64,000 bases of DNA from an uncultured Candidatus Saccharibacteria bacterium. GTDB taxonomy: Bacteria > Patescibacteriota > Minisyncoccia > Phycocordibacterales > DATDWN01. A program made the position numbers and the translations under genes. The notes under the pieces are model-generated. The model did no database searches. It saw nothing but the letters and a program-made list of their open reading frames with translations, and was not told the DNA's origin. The stretch lies in assembly GCA_964586695.1 (NCBI GenBank), contig CAZPGQ010000001.1:5350-69349 (forward strand), written 5' to 3'. Every line of letters begins with the position of its first letter. Position 1 is the stretch's first letter. Shown piece after piece: positions 4,605 to 41,886 of this stretch.

Positions 4605-6740
4605 ATGACAAACGTATTCAAAAGATTTTTTTTAGTGCTAACTCTGTCATTTTTCCTCTATGCTCCAACTTTTGGTGCAACTATTTCTAGACCCATGAGT
4701 AATTCGGGACTGGTGGGGTATTGGAATTTTGAAGAAGGGGCTCCAAATGGCTTTGCAAATGATAGAAGTGGTTTTGGTAACAACGGAACGCTTGTAAATA
4801 TGAATACGACAACATCTTGGACAGGTAGTGCGACAAGTTCTGGTCAAGCGCTGGATTTTGATAGCAATGATGATTATATAGATGTTGGCTCAGGAAGTAA
4901 TTTAGATAACCTTGGTCCAATGACTGTTTCTGCTTGGTACTATGCTAGGAGTGAAGGAGAAAACTCCAGAGGTGGAATATTTAATAAAGGTGATGGTGAT
5001 GGAGTTGGTACTAATGGGCCAGAATTTGAATTTGGATCTACGGGTTTCGATGGTAGCGATAGGACAAACGCCTTTGCATTTGGCGTTGGTTTTTCTGGCG
5101 GGGCACTTCATAGAATAGCTTCAAACAATACAGTTACTTTAAATAAATGGCAGTTTGTTACACTTACTTGGGACGGAACAACTTCATCTTCTGGTGTTCA
5201 TATTTATATTGATGGAGTTGAGGTTTCTTATCAAAAAAGCCAAGATGGTATCGGCTCGTTAAATGATGATAGCGGAACAAATATGTCTATAGGTATTGGT
5301 AGTTTTGGCGCTCAATCAAATAGTTGGGACGGAAAACTTGATGAAGTTAGAATATATAATAGAGCACTATCTTTTGACGAAGTTCAAAGGTTGTATAAAA
5401 TTCAGAAGCCTCGAGTGGTGGGCGGGGTTACAAACAGAGGACTTTCTGCTTACTGGGCATTTGAAGAGAATACAGGCACAAGGGCTGAGGATTCTAGTTT
5501 AAATAACAATACTGGCACACTCACAAGCGGGCCAACTTGGGTCAGTGGTAAAAATGGAAAAGCCCTATTTTTTGATGGGGTTGATGATTATGTTTCTATT
5601 CCAAATGCATCAGCAGTTGCACCTCCGAATGCTATAACTATTTCTGCTTGGGTGAAGGCCACAACCACAACAGCTACTCAAAGTATTATTGATGACGATA
5701 ATGGTGGATCAATCGGTTATTTTTTGAGAATCACCTCTTCTGGAAAACTCAATGGAAGAATCACTGCCACAACTATAACTGGAAATACTACGCTACAACC
5801 AAATACTTGGTATCATGTGGCATTAATTTATGATGGAGCAAATGTTTATGTTTATCTAAATGGAATTTCAGACGCAACTCCTGTGGCTAGAACTGGAACT
5901 ATAACATACAGTGGAGCATCTAAAGCTATAGGAAAGAGACCTGCAGGAGGCGCTCAATTTAATGGAACTATAGATGAGTTTCGTATGTACGACAGGGGCT
6001 TATCTGCAAGTGAGGTTTATGCTTTGTACAAAGGTAGTGTGGCTACTGTAGTCAATAAGTCAAAAACAAACAGACTAACAAACGGTCTTGTTGGTTATTG
6101 GACATTTGATGGGAATAAAATCGCAGGAGTAACGGCGTATGATTCTGGTAGTGGGGGGAATAATGGAGCAATAACAAACGGTCCGATGCCTGGTATTGGT
6201 ATGGTAGGTCAGGGTCTAAGTTTTGATGGTGTGGATGATTGTGTAATAATAGCTAACTCAGCATCTATACAAAACCTTGGACCGATGACTGTGTCATTTT
6301 GGTCAAAATTTAGCACTACAACTGCCGCAGGTATTCCTGTGGGAAAAAGAGACGGCTCTAATACGGGAGCATGGTTTATTGCTTTTTCGGGATCAAGTAG
6401 GAATATTAATTTTACTAAAAGGTTGGGTGTTACTAGGGCAACATCCAACAGTACATTGTTGTTATATGAGTGGGCGCATATAGTTGTAACGTGGGACGGG
6501 TCAAATAATGGATCTGGTATTAATATTTATCAAAATGGGACTGAATTGTCATACCAAACTACTGTTAATGGTACTGCTGCAGACGATAGTACGAACAATT
6601 TGGGGATTGGCGCTGGTTTAAGTAGTGGAGCATGTTCCAGTGCGATTAGCCCATTTGCTGGCTTGATTGACGACGTGCGTTTGTACAACCGTGTCATAAC
6701 CCAAGACGAAATAAAAGCTTTATATAATATGGGGAGGTAG
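4605..6740 (+). CDS. Secreted protein with three LamG / concanavalin-A-like lectin domains
   Basis: Signal peptide MTNVFKRFFLVLTLSFFLYAPTFGA. A module recurs three times: GLVGYWNFEEG...ALDFDGxDDYV...DEVRIYNRALSxDEV, then GLSAYWAFEENTG..., then GLVGYWTFDGN.... This matches the Laminin_G_3 signature. A TATAAT box 7 nt upstream of the ATG at 4605 suggests a leaderless or very short leader. The track start at 4581 is a TTG codon. Confidence 0.65.
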   Translation: MTNVFKRFFLVLTLSFFLYAPTFGATISRPMSNSGLVGYWNFEEGAPNGFANDRSGFGNNGTLVNMNTTTSWTGSATSSGQALDFDSNDDYIDVGSGSNLDNLGPMTVSAWYYARSEGENSRGGIFNKGDGDGVGTNGPEFEFGSTGFDGSDRTNAFAFGVGFSGGALHRIASNNTVTLNKWQFVTLTWDGTTSSSGVHIYIDGVEVSYQKSQDGIGSLNDDSGTNMSIGIGSFGAQSNSWDGKLDEVRIYNRALSFDEVQRLYKIQKPRVVGGVTNRGLSAYWAFEENTGTRAEDSSLNNNTGTLTSGPTWVSGKNGKALFFDGVDDYVSIPNASAVAPPNAITISAWVKATTTTATQSIIDDDNGGSIGYFLRITSSGKLNGRITATTITGNTTLQPNTWYHVALIYDGANVYVYLNGISDATPVARTGTITYSGASKAIGKRPAGGAQFNGTIDEFRMYDRGLSASEVYALYKGSVATVVNKSKTNRLTNGLVGYWTFDGNKIAGVTAYDSGSGGNNGAITNGPMPGIGMVGQGLSFDGVDDCVIIANSASIQNLGPMTVSFWSKFSTTTAAGIPVGKRDGSNTGAWFIAFSGSSRNINFTKRLGVTRATSNSTLLLYEWAHIVVTWDGSNNGSGINIYQNGTELSYQTTVNGTAADDSTNNLGIGAGLSSGACSSAISPFAGLIDDVRLYNRVITQDEIKALYNMGR

Positions 6741-15188: not shown

Positions 15189-15525
15189 GGCCAATTGTAC
15201 TCAAGTTATACAAAAAATCAAAGTTGATTATTTTTTGGGAGTTGCTAGACTGTTTTCGGCTGTTCTTTTGCACGAGGAGAACCGCTAATCCTTGAGGAAA
15301 GGAGGACTCGCTTCATGATCGACGAGGATCTGTTCGCGCTGTTCACCTAACCCTGCGGCGACCCAGAGGCCGGGTATGGGATCAAGGGTGAGCCCGGCAG
15401 CGCTCTCGTGCAGCGCACAAACAAACCGGAGACGGACTAGTATCCGTCAGGTGAGGAAGGCCTCACTTAACACATGGAGGATTGAATTAGAGCGGAGGGA
15501 CTGACATGTCCCTCCGCCTTAACTT

Positions 15526-16578: not shown

Positions 16579-16677
16579 TTGACAAAAAAATCTTTGTATG
16601 CTAAACTACCAGTCTCAATAAGTTTGATTGAGTTTTCGTTGAAAAAGGCAGTTTAAGTTCACCTTCGGGTGATTTTA
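16579..16677 (+). ncRNA. Candidate small RNA with its own promoter and terminator in the pilB-ruvB intergenic region
   Basis: TTGACA at 16579-16584, 17-nt spacer with TG, then TAAACT at 16602-16607. The predicted ~64-nt transcript has a CTCAAT-AAGTTTG-ATTGAG hairpin. It ends with the terminator hairpin TCACC-TTCG-GGTGA plus TTTT at 16659-16676. No ORF lies on this strand. Confidence 0.3.
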
Positions 16678-16966
16678 TAAGCTCCAAAATATAAATCTCT
16701 AAGCAACTAAGCGTTTTGCGTTTACGAGTGTTCCTGCGAGGACGATTTGGTTATTACCTTGTGTAATATCTGCATCTATCCTTTGCGAAATACTTAGCTT
16801 TTGGTATCGATTATTAAAAGTGTTGCTTAGAGATTTATGCTTTGGAGTTTTTTGTTACTCCTATGTTTAATTATTCACACAAGGGGAGTCTTTAGCAAGG
16901 GGATAACTCACTGAGCCACAAAATTCACACTCTCGGCAATCTTGATTTTTTAAATTTGGTCAGTTG

Positions 16967-18643: not shown

Positions 18644-18712
18644 GATTTTGTCTAAATATAATATCACAGAAAAGCCCTTAAAATAGGGCGTTTTTAACAG
18701 CTATTTTATAGC

Positions 18713-18741
18713 TTGACAAATACACTCAAATGGTGTATTAT
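18713..18741 (+). promoter_or_regulatory. Near-consensus sigma70 promoter (TTGACA, 17 nt spacer, TATTAT) driving GC-rich cassette 1
   Basis: TTGACA at 18713-18718 and TATTAT at 18736-18741, followed by an AAGGAGG RBS at 18749-18755. Confidence 0.5.
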
Positions 18742-18761
18742 TATAGGTAAGGAGGATGCCC

Positions 18762-19574
18762 ATGAGCATTCTGAATCGTACGGCCATTGTGGCCATGATT
18801 GTGTTCTTTGTAATGAGTTCGTCGTCTTTTGCTCAGGGCAAGTCTCCGGAGCAGGTCAGGGCGGAAAAGGCTGCCGCAGTTTTCGTCGCGGCAGTCGACG
18901 CTGCAGCAGCACAGACTGTCTCTGACAAGAAATCGGACAAGAAGAAGGAGACGGAGGCAGAGATGTTTGTTCGTCTCTCAACCCCAGTCGAAGGAGAGAG
19001 TGAGATGGACACGCGAAAGCGTGAACGCGCACTCAAGATCCTTCTCGACAACCGTGAGAAGGAGGCCACCAAGAGGAGGCAGAAATCCCTCTCTCTTGTC
19101 GAGCGTCAGGCCGCAGCCCAGGTTGAGGACGATGTCAAGAGGGAGGCCAAGGAAGACAAGAAGGCCTCCGACAGGCGTAGCATGCTCGGCCTTTCCTGTG
19201 GAAGGGATGAGGAAGGCGAACTCATCCCCACCGACAGTGTCGAGGTAAGTGATGACGCTGTTCAAGACTACCATAGAGACGTTCACTCGCGTCTCGTGGT
19301 GGTCAACCGGACACCGTTTGCCGTCGACGAGATTCGTCTCGTTGCTGGTAGGGGTGAGTCCGTGCAGGTCAAGAACCTGTGCCCGAACGGAAGGCTGAAC
19401 CTGATCCAATGGATCGGGTGGAGTATGAATACGTACGTTGAGTACGTGGCCACGATCCGAGATGGTTCTGGTCGGGTCAGCCTTTCCTACTCACCCCGGA
19501 TCAACTTGCAAGCTTGTCAGTTTGCAATGTGCCAGAGAGAATTCTCTGGCGTCTGGGAGATACAAGCAAGGTGA
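18762..19574 (+). CDS. GC-rich (about 55% GC) secreted protein of unknown function. Signal peptide, then a charged Ala/Lys/Glu-rich region, then a Cys-containing C-terminal domain.
   Basis: Composition differs sharply from the flanking sequence. Strong RBS 6 nt before the ATG at 18762. Signal peptide MSILNRTAIVAMIVFFVMSSSSFAQG. The high GC makes every other frame open, so the other ORFs listed in this region are artefacts. Confidence 0.55.
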   Translation: MSILNRTAIVAMIVFFVMSSSSFAQGKSPEQVRAEKAAAVFVAAVDAAAAQTVSDKKSDKKKETEAEMFVRLSTPVEGESEMDTRKRERALKILLDNREKEATKRRQKSLSLVERQAAAQVEDDVKREAKEDKKASDRRSMLGLSCGRDEEGELIPTDSVEVSDDAVQDYHRDVHSRLVVVNRTPFAVDEIRLVAGRGESVQVKNLCPNGRLNLIQWIGWSMNTYVEYVATIRDGSGRVSLSYSPRINLQACQFAMCQREFSGVWEIQAR

Positions 19575-19596
19575 GTGTCTCCCGAAAACAAGCACA

Positions 19597-19646
19597 CCCC
19601 GCGGGATTGTCCCGCGGGTAGGGGTCAGCAGATGCTGGCCTTTTTT
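19597..19646 (+). terminator. Palindromic GC motif plus rho-independent terminator closing GC-rich cassette 1
   Basis: CCCGCGGG-ATTGT-CCCGCGGG, then the hairpin GGTCAG-CAGATG-CTGGCC followed by TTTTTT. Confidence 0.6.
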
Positions 19647-19666
19647 CATACTCAAATATTTAAAAT

Positions 19667-24630: not shown

Positions 24631-24706
24631 GCGCCCATAACTCAGCTGGTAGAGTAGCTCCCTTTTAAGGAGAAAGTCGCAGGTTCGATCCCTGCTGGGC
24701 GCACCA
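24631..24706 (+). tRNA. tRNA-Lys (anticodon TTT), CCA encoded
   Basis: Hand fold: acceptor GCGCCCA/TGGGCGC, D arm ACTC-AGCTGGTA-GAGT, anticodon stem-loop GCTCC-CTTTTAA-GGAGA, T arm GCAGG-TTCGATC-CCTGC, discriminator A, CCA. Confidence 0.85.
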
Positions 24707-24748
24707 ATTAAAAAATCCCTGTAATGGGGATTTTTTAATTGGTGCGCC
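24698..24748 (+). repeat. Perfect palindrome with 22-bp arms overlapping the tRNA-Lys 3' end. Its inner part acts as an intrinsic terminator.
   Basis: GGCGCACCAATTAAAAAATCCC-TGTAATG-GGGATTTTTTAATTGGTGCGCC. The left arm contains the last 9 nt of the tRNA. Confidence 0.6.
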
Positions 24749-35047: not shown

Positions 35048-35243
35048 AATGGCAATACATTAACATAAAATATGGATTTAGAAAATGGTGTTTCAAGGAC
35101 TCGACTCTTACAGAGTCGGTACACCTTTTCTGTTTTTATTTCACTTTGTTCATAAAAACTATCAAAGGTTTTCGAGTCCTGACGAAATTGCCACCGGCAA
35201 TTTCTTATCGCCACGCAAAAATCCGCCAAAGCGGATTTTCCTG

Positions 35244-35316
35244 TGCGCGATACAGGACTCGAACCTGTGACCTACCCGGTGTAAACGGGTTGCTCTACCA
35301 ACTGAGCTAACCGCGC
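35244..35316 (-). tRNA. tRNA-Val (anticodon TAC)
   Basis: Reverse complement folds as acceptor GCGCGGT/ATCGCGC, D arm GCTC-AGTTGGTA-GAGC, anticodon arm ACCCG-TTTACAC-CGGGT, T arm ACAGG-TTCGAGT-CCTGT, discriminator A. The terminator hairpin AAAATCCGC-TTTG-GCGGATTTT lies downstream on the minus strand at about 35200-35225. Confidence 0.8.
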
Positions 35317-39437: not shown

Positions 39438-39929
39438 ATGGTTATAGTTTCGTGTAAATTATGCAGTAAAGAGTTTGGTGTTAAACCATCCTGGATTAAG
39501 TTGGGTTATGGAAAATATTGTTCTAGAGTTTGTCAGTATGAAGGAAGAAAAAGTGGAAAAGTTATTGCTTGTTCTGTTTGTGGAAAGGAATCATATAAAA
39601 ATAATAAAGCTATAAACGGTTCAAAAAGTGGTAAGTATTTTTGCGGTAAGTCCTGCCAAACTGTTTGGCGAAATGCTGAATTTGTTGGTAAAAAGCATGC
39701 AAATTATATTAACGGAAATGCTTCTTATAAAAGTATATTAGGTAGACATAAAATTCCTAGAATTTGTGGATTATGTGGGACTAGGGATTTAAGAGTTTTG
39801 GCGGTTCATCATATAGATGAAAATCATGTTAATAACGTATTAGAGAATCTAGCTTGGCTTTGCCACAATTGCCATTTTCTAGTGCATCATGATAAGGTAG
39901 AGAAGGCAAGATTTCTTGCCAGCAGGTAG
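39438..39929 (+). CDS. HNH endonuclease with N-terminal Cys-rich zinc-ribbon repeats
   Basis: Four or five CxxC pairs at the N-terminus. C-terminal LAVHHIDENHVNNVLENLAWLCHNCHFLVHH is an HNH motif. A TATATAAT box 7 nt from the ATG. Confidence 0.7.
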   Translation: MVIVSCKLCSKEFGVKPSWIKLGYGKYCSRVCQYEGRKSGKVIACSVCGKESYKNNKAINGSKSGKYFCGKSCQTVWRNAEFVGKKHANYINGNASYKSILGRHKIPRICGLCGTRDLRVLAVHHIDENHVNNVLENLAWLCHNCHFLVHHDKVEKARFLASR

Positions 39930-39933
39930 ACAT

Positions 39934-40007
39934 GGTGGCTATAGTGTAGCGGCTCTGCACGAAAGTTTGTGGAACTTTAAGTTCCGGTTCGACCCCGGAT
40001 AGCCACC
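39934..40007 (+). tRNA. tRNA-His (anticodon GTG) with encoded G-1 and C73
   Basis: G-1 then GTGGCTA/TAGCCAC acceptor. Anticodon arm AAAGT-TTGTGGA-ACTTT. T arm CCGGTTCGACCCCGG. Discriminator C. No CCA. Confidence 0.8.
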
Positions 40008-40078
40008 CTGCGATGAATTTCTCTAAAAAATCCTTACCGAGTAAGGATTTTTTAGTTCTATCTTGGTATACTTTTGGC

Positions 40079-40603: not shown

Positions 40604-40680
40604 TACAAGATTGAAAATCAGGAATGTTGATTGTGGCGTCATTTTTAAGCTCAAACACAGTTCTAACTTCCTCTACTACG

Positions 40681-40732
40681 CCACCCCAGATACAACAACC
40701 CGCGCAAGCGGGCTTTGTTGTATCTGGGGTGG
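40681..40732. repeat. 52-nt near-perfect hairpin (18-bp outer arms enclosing a CCCGC-GCAA-GCGGG inner stem) at the left edge of GC-rich cassette 2
   Basis: CCACCCCAGATACAACAA-CCCGCGCAAGCGGGCT-TTGTTGTATCTGGGGTGG. No flanking T-run on either strand, so it is not a classical terminator. Confidence 0.6.
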
Positions 40733-40805
40733 CTATGGAAATGTTTAGAGTTTCATTTATATTTTGTGACCTTTATAAAATGTTTTATTTAGGTGTTCAA
40801 TACTA

Positions 40806-40834
40806 TTGACAAATGTCATTTTTTTTGTTATTAA
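40806..40834 (+). promoter_or_regulatory. Near-consensus sigma70 promoter (TTGACA, 17 nt spacer, TATTAA) driving GC-rich cassette 2
   Basis: TTGACA at 40806-40811 and TATTAA at 40829-40834. GGAGG RBS at 40861-40865, 6 nt before the ATG at 40872. Confidence 0.5.
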
Positions 40835-40871
40835 ACTAGGTAGAGCCAATCCTGGCTACTGGAGGTTTGTA

Positions 40872-41732
40872 ATGCAGAAGTATGTGCTGATTTTTGCCGT
40901 AGTTTGCTCGCTGTTCCTTGTCGGTTGTGGCGGAGGGAACCCCTCAGCCCCGACACGTGGGACAATCACGTCGATCGTTGGGGGGCAACCTTCCAACGAG
41001 ATCGCTGGTCCAATCCGTCCCACGGTCCAACCATGGACGGTGGAACTGAGGGGAGGGCAGGCTGGGAAAGTCTGCTCGGGCCCAGCCAACAACCTCGACA
41101 GCCAGCCTTCGAGGTATATCATCAGGGTTGCTGATGCAGGTCCAGTTGAGTGGGAGCCGTTGGGTTTCGTACACTACAGCACGCATCCGGGGTGCGAACC
41201 GACGGTGGAAAACCCATCACCGTTGGAGGTCATTGGGCAGACAACTTTCCTAGCCCACAGCAGTGGGGAATTCACAGTCCCAACTAAGGGGGAAGGTCTA
41301 AGCTGTGGGCGCGTCCAGTTGGACGTGCAAGGCTTCGACAAGAAGACAAGGAAGCCAATTCCCGAACTCTTTTTTGTTGGCGTTGTGTTTGACTCGGGCA
41401 AGGAATGCCCGAGACCAGAGCCAAAGGTGGAAGAGATCCCACCTCCTTGTGTGGTGGGGGATGTCTCTGTAATTCGTGTTGGGGAAGATATCTTGTCCCC
41501 AACTGGACTGACTGTCCGACGGGCCGTCAAATTCAGCGGAAGTGGAGCCGTCACAGTAAACTGGGGAGACGGGTCGCCATCACAGACGGTAATGACCGGA
41601 GCGGTCATTACCCATGTGTTTCTAAGGCCAGTGAAGAACACTGGCCCAGACTTTAGGGAGTATGTCATCTCCCTCTCAGGGTGCGGTAAGACTGTCACAC
41701 AGTTTGCCGTTAGGGTGACCCAAACTCAGTAA
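40872..41732 (+). CDS. GC-rich (about 58% GC) lipoprotein of unknown function
   Basis: Signal peptide with lipobox MQKYVLIFAVVCSLFLVGCGGG. Gly/Pro-rich beta-type sequence with 8 Cys. Composition is sharply different from the flanks. The ORFs on other frames and strands here are GC artefacts. The track start at 40806 is the TTG inside the -35 box. Confidence 0.55.
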   Translation: MQKYVLIFAVVCSLFLVGCGGGNPSAPTRGTITSIVGGQPSNEIAGPIRPTVQPWTVELRGGQAGKVCSGPANNLDSQPSRYIIRVADAGPVEWEPLGFVHYSTHPGCEPTVENPSPLEVIGQTTFLAHSSGEFTVPTKGEGLSCGRVQLDVQGFDKKTRKPIPELFFVGVVFDSGKECPRPEPKVEEIPPPCVVGDVSVIRVGEDILSPTGLTVRRAVKFSGSGAVTVNWGDGSPSQTVMTGAVITHVFLRPVKNTGPDFREYVISLSGCGKTVTQFAVRVTQTQ

Positions 41733-41751
41733 TCTTGGGATTGGGGTTGAG

Positions 41752-41785
41752 GGCAGGCGCGACAAGCGTCTGCCTCTCTTTTTAT
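41752..41785 (+). terminator. Strong rho-independent terminator closing GC-rich cassette 2
   Basis: GGCAGGCG-CGACAAG-CGTCTGCC (8 bp with one G-U) followed by TCTCTTTTTAT. Confidence 0.65.
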
Positions 41786-41886
41786 ATAAAAATAATTATC
41801 ACACCTCTATAATTTTATTATAAATAAGATAAGACTATCTTATCTGTGCTATAATGGCCATCTGATTATCAATAGCCATTAAACGA

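Follow-up and report, generated by a model that had tools for sequence, protein, structure and literature searches.

We analysed a 64-kb stretch of the contig CAZPGQ010000001.1 (the window; 64,000 nucleotides (nt), GC content 36.9%) with a focus on a GC-rich gene for a cysteine-rich lipoprotein and on the element that carries it, hereafter cassette 2. Our results make it rather likely that cassette 2 is a self-contained foreign expression unit with a single gene for a surface lipoprotein, i.e., an old horizontal acquisition that resembles the morons known from phages. A dedicated insertion mechanism for such units, as proposed in a preliminary description of the window, is not supported. Furthermore, the long hairpin upstream of the gene is the trailer of a tRNA-His gene and lies outside of the cassette. 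The features of cassette 2 are as follows.

40734..41847, plus strand: cassette 2, i.e., the sequence missing from the related loci L102 and L098; it stops directly ahead of the next gene's promoter region, GCTATAATGG
40806..40834, plus strand: promoter-like site TTGACA-17 nt-TATTAA with -35 element at 40806-40811, -10 element at 40829-34, and a TG 2 bases upstream of the -10 element
40861..40865, plus strand: Shine-Dalgarno (SD) motif GGAGG, 6 nt ahead of the ATG
40872..41732, plus strand: coding sequence (CDS) of the lipoprotein, 286 amino acids (aa), GC-rich, with lipobox, N-domain (residues ~50-200) and PKD-like C-terminal domain (residues ~200-280)
41751..41785, plus strand: predicted intrinsic terminator GGGCAGGCGCG-ACAAG-CGTCTGCCT plus T-run, which closes the GC-rich block

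That is, the GC-rich CDS and its terminator are framed by an AT-rich promoter region and an AT-rich tail of about 70 nt.

Locus, host and relatives

The ribosomal protein L11 of the host clusters at ≥90% identity with proteins from 'Candidatus Zambryskibacteria' and from metagenome-assembled genomes (MAGs) of Minisyncoccia. We therefore consider the host a Parcubacteria-group bacterium within the candidate phyla radiation (CPR). CPR bacteria (Patescibacteria) are mostly uncultured episymbionts, whose hosts and surface biology are largely unknown. The present bacterium is small, AT-rich and of soil type.

Cassette 2 is found in a variable slot between rplS (coding for L19) and an ABC transporter gene, a setting with many tRNA and homing endonuclease genes. 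We compared the window with loci of relatives (L007, L019, L098-L102), with L105, i.e., the window's own contig past the right end of the window, and with L106, the locus of a sibling strain. The boundaries were derived from a comparison of the junctions in the window, L100, L098, L102 and L007. Structural alleles were read from contigs that encode an identical ABC-transporter protein. At least 6 independent samples yielded at least 9 contigs in which the lipoprotein gene was assembled within the same context and with the same junctions. Cassette 2 is thus neither a chimera nor an assembly artefact.

A GC-rich gene under purifying selection

The GC content of the CDS is 0.557 (GC1/2/3, i.e., the GC content per codon position, of 0.585/0.495/0.592), such that its GC-richness stands while the earlier figure of about 58% is slightly too high. 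The median GC3 over 60 long open reading frames (ORFs) of the window is only 0.28. GC3 values above 0.45 are found for 2/60 ORFs, namely the CDS of cassette 2 (0.59) and the CDS of a second unit, cassette 1 (18762-19574; 0.64). Fine-scale profiling combined with a maximal-segment analysis identified the respective GC-rich blocks 18751-19640 and 40896-41778, and both blocks stop at the final base of a terminator stem.

A syntenic orthologue of the lipoprotein with 77% amino-acid identity is encoded in L007, where the gene shows a GC3 of 0.54 within a locus of 35% GC. Over all orthologues examined, GC3 ranges from 0.54 to 0.71. The region 40872-41732 is protein-coding and under purifying selection: between window and L007, we count 44/27/110 differences at codon positions 1/2/3, and the ratio of nonsynonymous to synonymous divergence (dN/dS) is 0.20. 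The divergence at four-fold degenerate sites (K4) is 0.61 and lies within the range of the neighbouring genes (0.40-1.20). The gene thus has a long residence, over which it diverged along with the genome. Its synonymous divergence (dS) is slightly below that of most neighbours.

We also considered dual coding, given an antisense ORF of 174 aa. We rejected this candidate, since its length is within the expectation from synonymous shuffles and it is shorter in L007. In Rfam, neither of the GC islands nor the hairpin had a match, with gathering as well as E-value thresholds.

Predicted expression signals of cassette 2

The promoter-like site TTGACA-17-TATTAA is retained in the orthologous loci L007 and L100, with strong conservation of promoter and 5' untranslated region (5'UTR). 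Its labeling as a consensus promoter is only partly appropriate, since TATTAA agrees with the -10 consensus at 4/6 positions and lacks the final T. Sites of the form TTGACA-N17-TAnnn[AT] are rare: there are 3 in the 64 kb, and 2/3 are located upstream of cassettes 1 and 2.

The ribosome binding site and the GC-rich hairpin terminator were correctly described before, and both are conserved in relatives (GGAGG in L007, the terminator in L007 and L100). The terminator stem (41751-41775) is followed by CTCTTTTTAT and shows a folding energy (dG) of -22.5 with z-score -4.3. Among 27 database gene calls, GGAGG precedes a single gene, i.e., that of the lipoprotein, while native upstream regions are AT-rich without SD motif. 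Most native genes have neither a consensus -35 element nor an SD motif.

The near-absence of SD motifs from native gene starts, observed in the window and in locus L001, suggests SD-independent initiation for most genes. In the literature we searched, no account of SD usage in Patescibacteria was found.

Presence and absence among near-identical strains

Comparative genomics, which had been suggested as a check, revealed that the unit is present or absent among near-identical strains. In L098, L099 and L101, the allele consists of an M16 gene, an HNH endonuclease gene, a first type of tRNA-His gene (type A), 19 nt and the next gene, without lipoprotein gene. The allele of L100 shows the M16 gene, a second type of tRNA-His gene (type B), the hairpin, promoter, lipoprotein gene, terminator and the next gene. 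The window carries a composite of both alleles and, in addition, a kinase gene. The flanks of L098 and L100 are 99.8-100% identical at the nucleotide level, which argues for a recent allelic replacement within one population. The allele structures are consistent with a replacement by homologous recombination between the conserved flanks.

At the junctions of cassette 2, we saw no direct repeats (by eye), and no recombinase gene adjoins the cassette in loci with gene calls examined. Within 80 more distant ABC-transporter loci, the lipoprotein gene was found in 0/80; since synteny is mostly lost in these loci, its absence there says little.

The slot itself is hypervariable. For instance, the more distant relative L019 encodes a secreted peptidoglycan-binding protein of native GC content at this position. 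L102 shows at 1005-1682 an ORF with a faint LAGLIDADG-type match in place of a VTT-domain gene beside rplS. If real, this ORF represents a second type of homing endonuclease in the variable region.

The upstream hairpin belongs to tRNA-His

The features upstream of cassette 2 are as follows.

39438..39929: HNH endonuclease gene, upstream of tRNA-His type A and travelling with it; match to phrog_1271 (E-value 8e-17)
39935..40008, plus strand: intact tRNA-His, type A without encoded CCA; ordinary terminator at 40023-40055; about 670 bp upstream
~40623..40688, plus strand: decayed copy of tRNA-His type B, adjoining the hairpin; intact in L007 and L100, while ARAGORN reports no tRNA here
40680..40733, plus strand: hairpin of 54 nt with 24 bp, a 2-nt bulge and a GCAA loop; dG -47.5, z-score -9.9

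The long hairpin is real, but it does not have the role of a cassette boundary that had been assigned to it. Its 5' arm opens with the 3' end of tRNA-His, GCCACCCCA. In L007 and L100, the intact tRNA-His gene ends exactly at the start of the hairpin (...GTAGCCACCCCA), i.e., the 5' arm begins with the 3' strand of the acceptor stem plus CCA. Here, the order is tRNA-His, hairpin and cassette, with the unit immediately 3' of the tRNA gene. Over four genomes, 26 stem pairs are paired in 100% of the cases; 4 of them are changed on both sides and 0 on one side only. In L102, the same hairpin directly follows tRNA-His (z-score -7.3), although there is no lipoprotein gene. The hairpin is thus the tRNA-His trailer, i.e., a terminator-type palindrome outside of the cassette. 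The inner stem CCCGC-GCAA-GCGGG of the window, for which a likeness to the CCCGCGGG palindromes of cassette 1 had been claimed, corresponds to ACCCCAC-TTTT-GTGGGGT in L007, and the claim is not confirmed.

Hairpins of this kind are also found at other tRNA genes, all of them without GC-rich neighbour and away from any cassette. The tRNA-Lys gene (24631-24706) has a trailer at 24695-24748 (z-score -7.8), the tRNA-Val gene (35243-35316) one at 35165-35262 on the minus strand (z-score -8.3), and tRNA-Arg in L019 one at 2490-2560 (z-score -12.8). The tRNA-Val trailer is conserved in L007 with a compensated pair. In L007, such a trailer is located at 5325-5428. In each case, a terminator-like core (A-tract, GC stem, T-tract) is extended through base pairs to the 3' end of the tRNA itself. 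These hairpins are long and near-perfect (z-scores from -7.8 to -12.8) and conserved with compensated pairs. Their 5' arms start within the 3' strand of the acceptor stem (plus CCA where encoded), and their cores resemble bidirectional terminators. No description of such tRNA-trailer palindromes was found in the literature searched.

The HNH gene shows a nucleotide identity of 90.7% between window and L102 compared to 66% for the adjacent M16 gene. This much higher similarity argues that HNH gene and tRNA-His type A form a module that is itself mobile. In L098, the type A gene encodes CCA, while the window's copy does not. The arrangement suggests a mobile homing-endonuclease/tRNA module that replaces, or is added to, the resident type B gene. 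The decay of the type B gene in the window would then follow from the arrival of a second tRNA-His together with the HNH gene. Another observation concerns L019. Here, 21 nt of the tRNA-His 3' end recur as a direct repeat (4896-4916 and 5040-5060) some 145 bp past the gene. This repeat resembles an att-type scar, which suggests tRNA-His as a hot spot of recombination in the lineage.

Family, domains and predicted structure of the lipoprotein

The N-terminus MQKYVLIFAVVCSLFLVGC is a predicted signal peptide with the lipobox LVGC at residues 16-19. The lipobox cysteine is invariant in the orthologue and present in nearly all members of the family introduced below. Gly, Pro and Cys account for 11.9%, 9.4% and 2.8% of the residues compared to 6.6%, 3.6% and 0.5% for host proteins, in accordance with the composition noted before.

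Whether or not the protein has a recognisable family depends on the search. Neither the lipoprotein nor the cassette 1 protein has a match in sequence searches of Pfam, NCBIfam, PHROGs, PADLOC and PDB. Within Pfam, there is no match of the lipoprotein at E<0.1, and hence the gathering thresholds of the PKD families (PF00801 / PF18911) are not reached. An exhaustive HMMER profile search over 1.84 billion representatives, by contrast, provided 53 matches that form two groups. The first group comprises about 36 clusters that share the N-domain (residues ~50-200), with matches to several members at E-values of 1e-9 to 1e-13. The conserved core of the domain spans about 130 aa, in which Cys60, Cys97 and Cys131 are invariant or nearly so; it also contains the motifs DAGP, PGCxPT and CGRVQxDV. 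Nearly all members begin with a lipoprotein signal peptide, usually with PKD/Ig repeats downstream of the N-domain. The second group consists of large multi-repeat proteins that align to residues 200-280 and carry Pfam PKD domains; the respective region of the lipoprotein contains the motif NWGDGS (WGDGS), which is typical of PKD domains.

The family mostly shows the amino-acid signature of high-GC organisms (Gly+Ala+Arg+Pro fraction 0.33-0.41), compared to about 0.18-0.20 in 3/4 host proteins sampled. We scanned species-representative genomes for the N-domain using a 9-sequence subset of the 36-sequence alignment and found 4 loci in 3 Acidobacteriota MAGs. These loci have 65-70% GC, and the GC3 of the homologues is 0.73-0.91. 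In addition, NCBI names two family members as proteins of Vicinamibacterales. A word-indexed family search returned 7 proteins.

The Vicinamibacterales 'PKD domain-containing protein' resembles the lipoprotein in its lipoprotein signal, an N-domain with four conserved cysteines and the motifs DAGP, PGCxPT and CGRVQxDV, and a subsequent PKD/Ig-like domain. Compared to the Acidobacteriota PKD lipoproteins, the protein studied here carries a single degenerate PKD-like domain where those have several clear repeats, is without the long Pro/Ala/Ser-rich linker and is encoded in a CPR genome of 37% GC.

The structure prediction, also suggested as a check, gave a mediocre model. The AlphaFold2 (AF2) model of the lipoprotein is all-beta with a predicted local distance difference test (pLDDT) score of 55 overall and 66-84 for residues 80-180. 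The C-terminal domain (residues 200-280) is modelled as all-beta with low confidence (pLDDT 45-69). A Foldseek search of the PDB provided only generic tandem Ig-like sandwiches with template modelling (TM) scores no better than 0.3. Probably, the gene codes for an Ig-like adhesin or binding protein of the cell surface that is stabilised by disulfides.

Cassette 1 and further units with the same layout

The common layout of cassettes 1 and 2 was correctly recognised; it is unusual for this genome and recurs in three further units (cas3-5) just outside of the window.

18713..19650, plus strand: cassette 1, with TTGACA-17-TATTAT at 18713-18741, GGAGG at 18751-55, and the CDS of a secreted 270-aa protein at 18762-19574
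19598-19618, plus strand: hairpin CCCGCGGG-N5-CCCGCGGG at the 3' end of cassette 1, followed by its terminator at 19620-19650
L106 14795-15652 and 16809-17858, L105 16321-16641: coordinates of cas3-5
cas3: 285 aa, GC3 0.51, promoter-like site ACTATTGACA-N17-TACTGT, SD motif AAGGAGG
cas4: 349 aa, GC3 0.53, promoter-like site TTGACT-N17-TATAAT, SD motif AAAGGAG
cas5: 106 aa, GC3 0.50, perfect promoter-like site TTGACA-N17-TATAAT, SD motif GGAGAG

In all relatives, cassette 1 is found in synteny and is likewise GC-rich (GC3 0.61-0.71). Its promoter, CCCGCGGG hairpin and terminator are conserved, and no empty-site allele was found for it. The CCCGCGGG palindromes do not flank the cassette, as had been stated. 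The motif occurs only at positions 19598 and 19611 of the window; both copies are 3' of the stop codon and form one hairpin. The proteins of cassettes 1 and 2 are indeed unrelated (profile-profile comparison with hhalign, probability 0.6%). That such units encode exported proteins does not extend to cas3-5, whose products are orphans without signal peptide. The AF2 model of the cassette 1 protein is too poor for a fold search. Both proteins share the hexapeptide GLSCGR (41295-41312, residues 142-147; 19188-19205, residues 143-148), which we attribute to chance given the different codons and the negative profile comparison.

A scan over about 950 kb of CPR loci detected no GC islands other than those of cassettes 1 and 2 and of two sites in L106. 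An inspection of these sites and of L105 revealed the three further GC-elevated single-gene units. Each of them has a GC-rich terminator and is located in a strain-variable slot (S18/EamA, EF-P/RecA). Searches of Pfam and PHROGs provided no match for their proteins. Thus, at least five units have a common layout, and three of them contain TTGACAAAT.

Origin of the unit and alternative explanations

We consider the following scenario for cassette 2. The gene would have been acquired from a high-GC donor before the lineages of window and L007 split, since its synonymous divergence resembles that of the neighbours. As the terminators and the SD motif of cassette 1 are within the GC-rich blocks, they probably arrived with the respective genes, while the AT-rich promoter would be the host's contribution. 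Within the population, the unit may spread or get lost via homologous recombination of the conserved flanks, probably after DNA uptake, with no need for dedicated insertion machinery. The common layout would reflect what a GC-rich foreign gene needs among native operons without SD motifs, i.e., a strong promoter of its own, an SD motif for translation start on a more structured mRNA, and terminators for insulation. Simple arithmetic based on K4 would still allow for a GC3 of about 0.8 in the donor when the lineages split.

Several observations weigh against this scenario. There is no close donor sequence: the best relatives outside of the CPR show an identity of only 30-36% in the N-domain, and in a distance tree the CPR pair is placed on a long, deep branch without close donor. 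The direction of transfer thus rests on distribution and composition rather than on a nested phylogeny. The low-confidence structure model and the generic fold matches also count against it. The functions of promoter, SD motif and terminator are inferred from sequence only. Furthermore, L105 and L106 are identical through the -35 hexamer and diverge right after it, which is not predicted by purely flank-based recombination. That all five units have a similar GC3 (0.50-0.64) might point to one source, or to one constraint, that they have in common. Finally, a neutral decay towards the host composition would need a ratio of GC-to-AT over reverse changes of at least 4.6:1. For cassette 1, parsimony polarisation provided 33:17 changes from G/C to A/T versus the reverse. 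Controls based on host genes show the mirror-image bias (49:95 and 9:30). That is, parsimony over-counts changes away from the common state, such that no net GC-to-AT decay is detectable and GC3 may be held by selection instead of being a fading donor signature. The polarisation is low-powered and biased, and proves neither stationarity nor amelioration.

This leads to one of two unlikely alternatives: the gene would be native, or at any rate no recent arrival, and selection on the gene itself would keep its GC content, e.g., for mRNA stability or structure, SD-dependent translation or the avoidance of spurious AT-rich signals in a surface-protein gene with high expression. The neighbour-like synonymous divergence with its long residence, the somewhat lower dS, the high GC3 in all orthologues (0.54-0.71), the strongly conserved promoter and 5'UTR, the similar GC3 of five units and the missing net AT-ward flux once the bias of the method is counted would all fit. 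However, highly expressed native genes, i.e., those of L19 and L11, show a GC3 of only about 0.29-0.31, and the other occurrences of the family are mostly in organisms with a high-GC signature. The presence/absence polymorphism and, with the above limit, the absence from all 80 distant loci also speak against a native gene, and the polarisation does not prove the stationarity that this explanation implies.

A similarly doubtful variant combines selection with acquisition. Here, the population would keep a set of interchangeable 'chromosomal morons', i.e., orphan single-gene units of distinct composition, each with a consensus sigma-70 promoter and an SD motif, whose GC3 is held stationary by selection (e.g., SD-led translation or mRNA stability) rather than being a fading donor signature, and the lipoprotein would be borrowed from an Acidobacteriota-type bacterial host of the episymbiont.

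The other unlikely alternative, in line with the preliminary description, is a dedicated site-specific or hairpin-guided insertion system, be it integron-like, IS200/IS605-like or based on a tRNA-targeting integrase, with the palindromes or the -35 region as sites. It would account for the ancestral position of the unit immediately 3' of tRNA-His in L007 and L100, for the 21-nt repeat of the tRNA-His 3' end in L019, for the single layout of at least five units (three with TTGACAAAT), for the break between the L105 and L106 alleles directly after the -35 element and for the homing endonuclease genes (HNH, LAGLIDADG) in the slot. Against this system, the hairpin occurs without cassette in L102 and has analogs at tRNA genes free of cassettes, its inner stem motif is not conserved, and CCCGCGGG is found only at cassette 1 and on one side. 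In the loci with examined gene calls, no integrase or transposase is seen beside the cassettes, the junctions of cassette 2 show no direct repeats to the eye, and cassettes 1 and cas3-5 are away from tRNA genes. Moreover, integron cassettes are normally promoterless while these units carry promoters. A common insertion mechanism of the two cassettes is therefore not supported: the palindromes do not mark a shared boundary, the hairpin is linked to the tRNA, neither a recombinase gene beside the cassette nor flanking direct repeats (by eye) are seen, and no link to phages was found.

The latter also makes it quite improbable that phage morons explain the units, be it as prophage remnants or through delivery by CPR-infecting phages. 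Their layout fits the published description of morons (PMC2920897), and the neighbouring HNH gene matches the phage HNH family phrog_1271 (E-value 8e-17). Yet the flanks are housekeeping rather than phage genes (L19, ABC transporter, TsaE, PolA, EF-P, RecA), 0/5 cassette proteins have a PHROG match, and the proteins of cassettes 1 to 4 are without relatives in 2.9 million viral contigs (IMG/VR).

In AT-rich genomes, a GC-rich island is often a structured RNA, and GC-rich DNA readily yields long ORFs, as the 174-aa antisense ORF may illustrate; a chimeric assembly or a structured non-coding RNA (ncRNA) can nevertheless be dismissed given the recurrence in at least 9 contigs and 6 samples with the same junctions, the codon-position pattern (44/27/110) with dN/dS 0.2, the missing Rfam match and an antisense ORF that is as long as expected from synonymous shuffles and shrinks in L007.

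Relation to known systems

We return to the reading of cassette 2 as an old, moron-like acquisition. Horizontally transferred genes with atypical GC content and expression signals of their own are well known, i.e., the core phenomenon is not new. In the moron concept of Hendrix and colleagues, promoter and terminator come with the gene itself, its GC content deviates from the surroundings, its presence varies, and insertion hot spots hold different cargo (as summarised in PMC2920897). Cassette 2 would share with phage morons the single extra gene, the putative promoter and terminator of its own, the distinct GC content, the variable presence and slots with different cargo. It differs by its position between chromosomal genes (tRNA, kinase, ABC transporter, L19), the lack of a detectable phage link and its long-term residence.

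With tRNA-associated islands, it has in common the position 3' of tRNA-His (L007, L100), the hypervariable slot and the duplicated fragments of tRNA 3' ends in the lineage. In contrast to such islands, neither an integrase nor direct repeats of the tRNA 3' end on both sides of the unit are seen, the adjoining repeat is inverted (the 3' arm of the hairpin), and the unit has only about 1.1 kb with one gene. Integron cassettes are similar in that a single-ORF unit of variable presence is located beside an imperfect palindrome. Here, however, the unit has its own promoter, the units are scattered instead of being arranged in an array, and the palindrome belongs to the tRNA gene. At cassette 2, neither attC cores (R''/L''/L'/R'; by eye) nor an integron integrase (gene calls) are seen.

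Horizontal acquisition is also documented for CPR/Saccharibacteria, where a reduced-genome bacterium gains accessory genes from divergent sources (PMC7427843). Compared to these acquisitions, the units studied here keep a strong compositional signature and canonical signals that host genes mostly lack.

A strain-variable surface lipoprotein from a high-GC lineage is a candidate factor for host interaction and may hint at the lineage of its donor or of the host. Furthermore, the canonical promoters and SD motifs of foreign units versus native genes without SD provide a natural experiment on the expression of foreign genes. The conserved palindromes that pair with tRNA 3' ends, for which we found no description, merit a separate study.

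Further observations

Immediately upstream of the cassette 1 promoter, in the region from which cassette 1 and the pilus ATPase gene diverge, we find a conserved terminator-like hairpin (18681-18706; AGCCCT-TAAAAT-AGGGCG followed by TTTTT) that may be an insulator. A gap of 428 bp that separates ruvB from the pilus ATPase gene contains the third promoter-like site of the window (16579-16607, plus strand; TTGACA-N17-TAAACT), with nothing annotated downstream of the site.

Two further regions could be structured RNAs. Between ruvB and a YebC/TACO1-like gene, a 262-bp intergenic segment (15257-15518) has a GC content of 0.58 and no ORF above 42 aa. Its minus strand folds with z-score -3.7 including a strong hairpin at the start and has no Rfam match, which makes it a candidate ncRNA. 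In L105, the GC-rich region at about 16740-16870 between cas5 and recA shows the long-range complementarity ttttccgag...ctcggaaaac.

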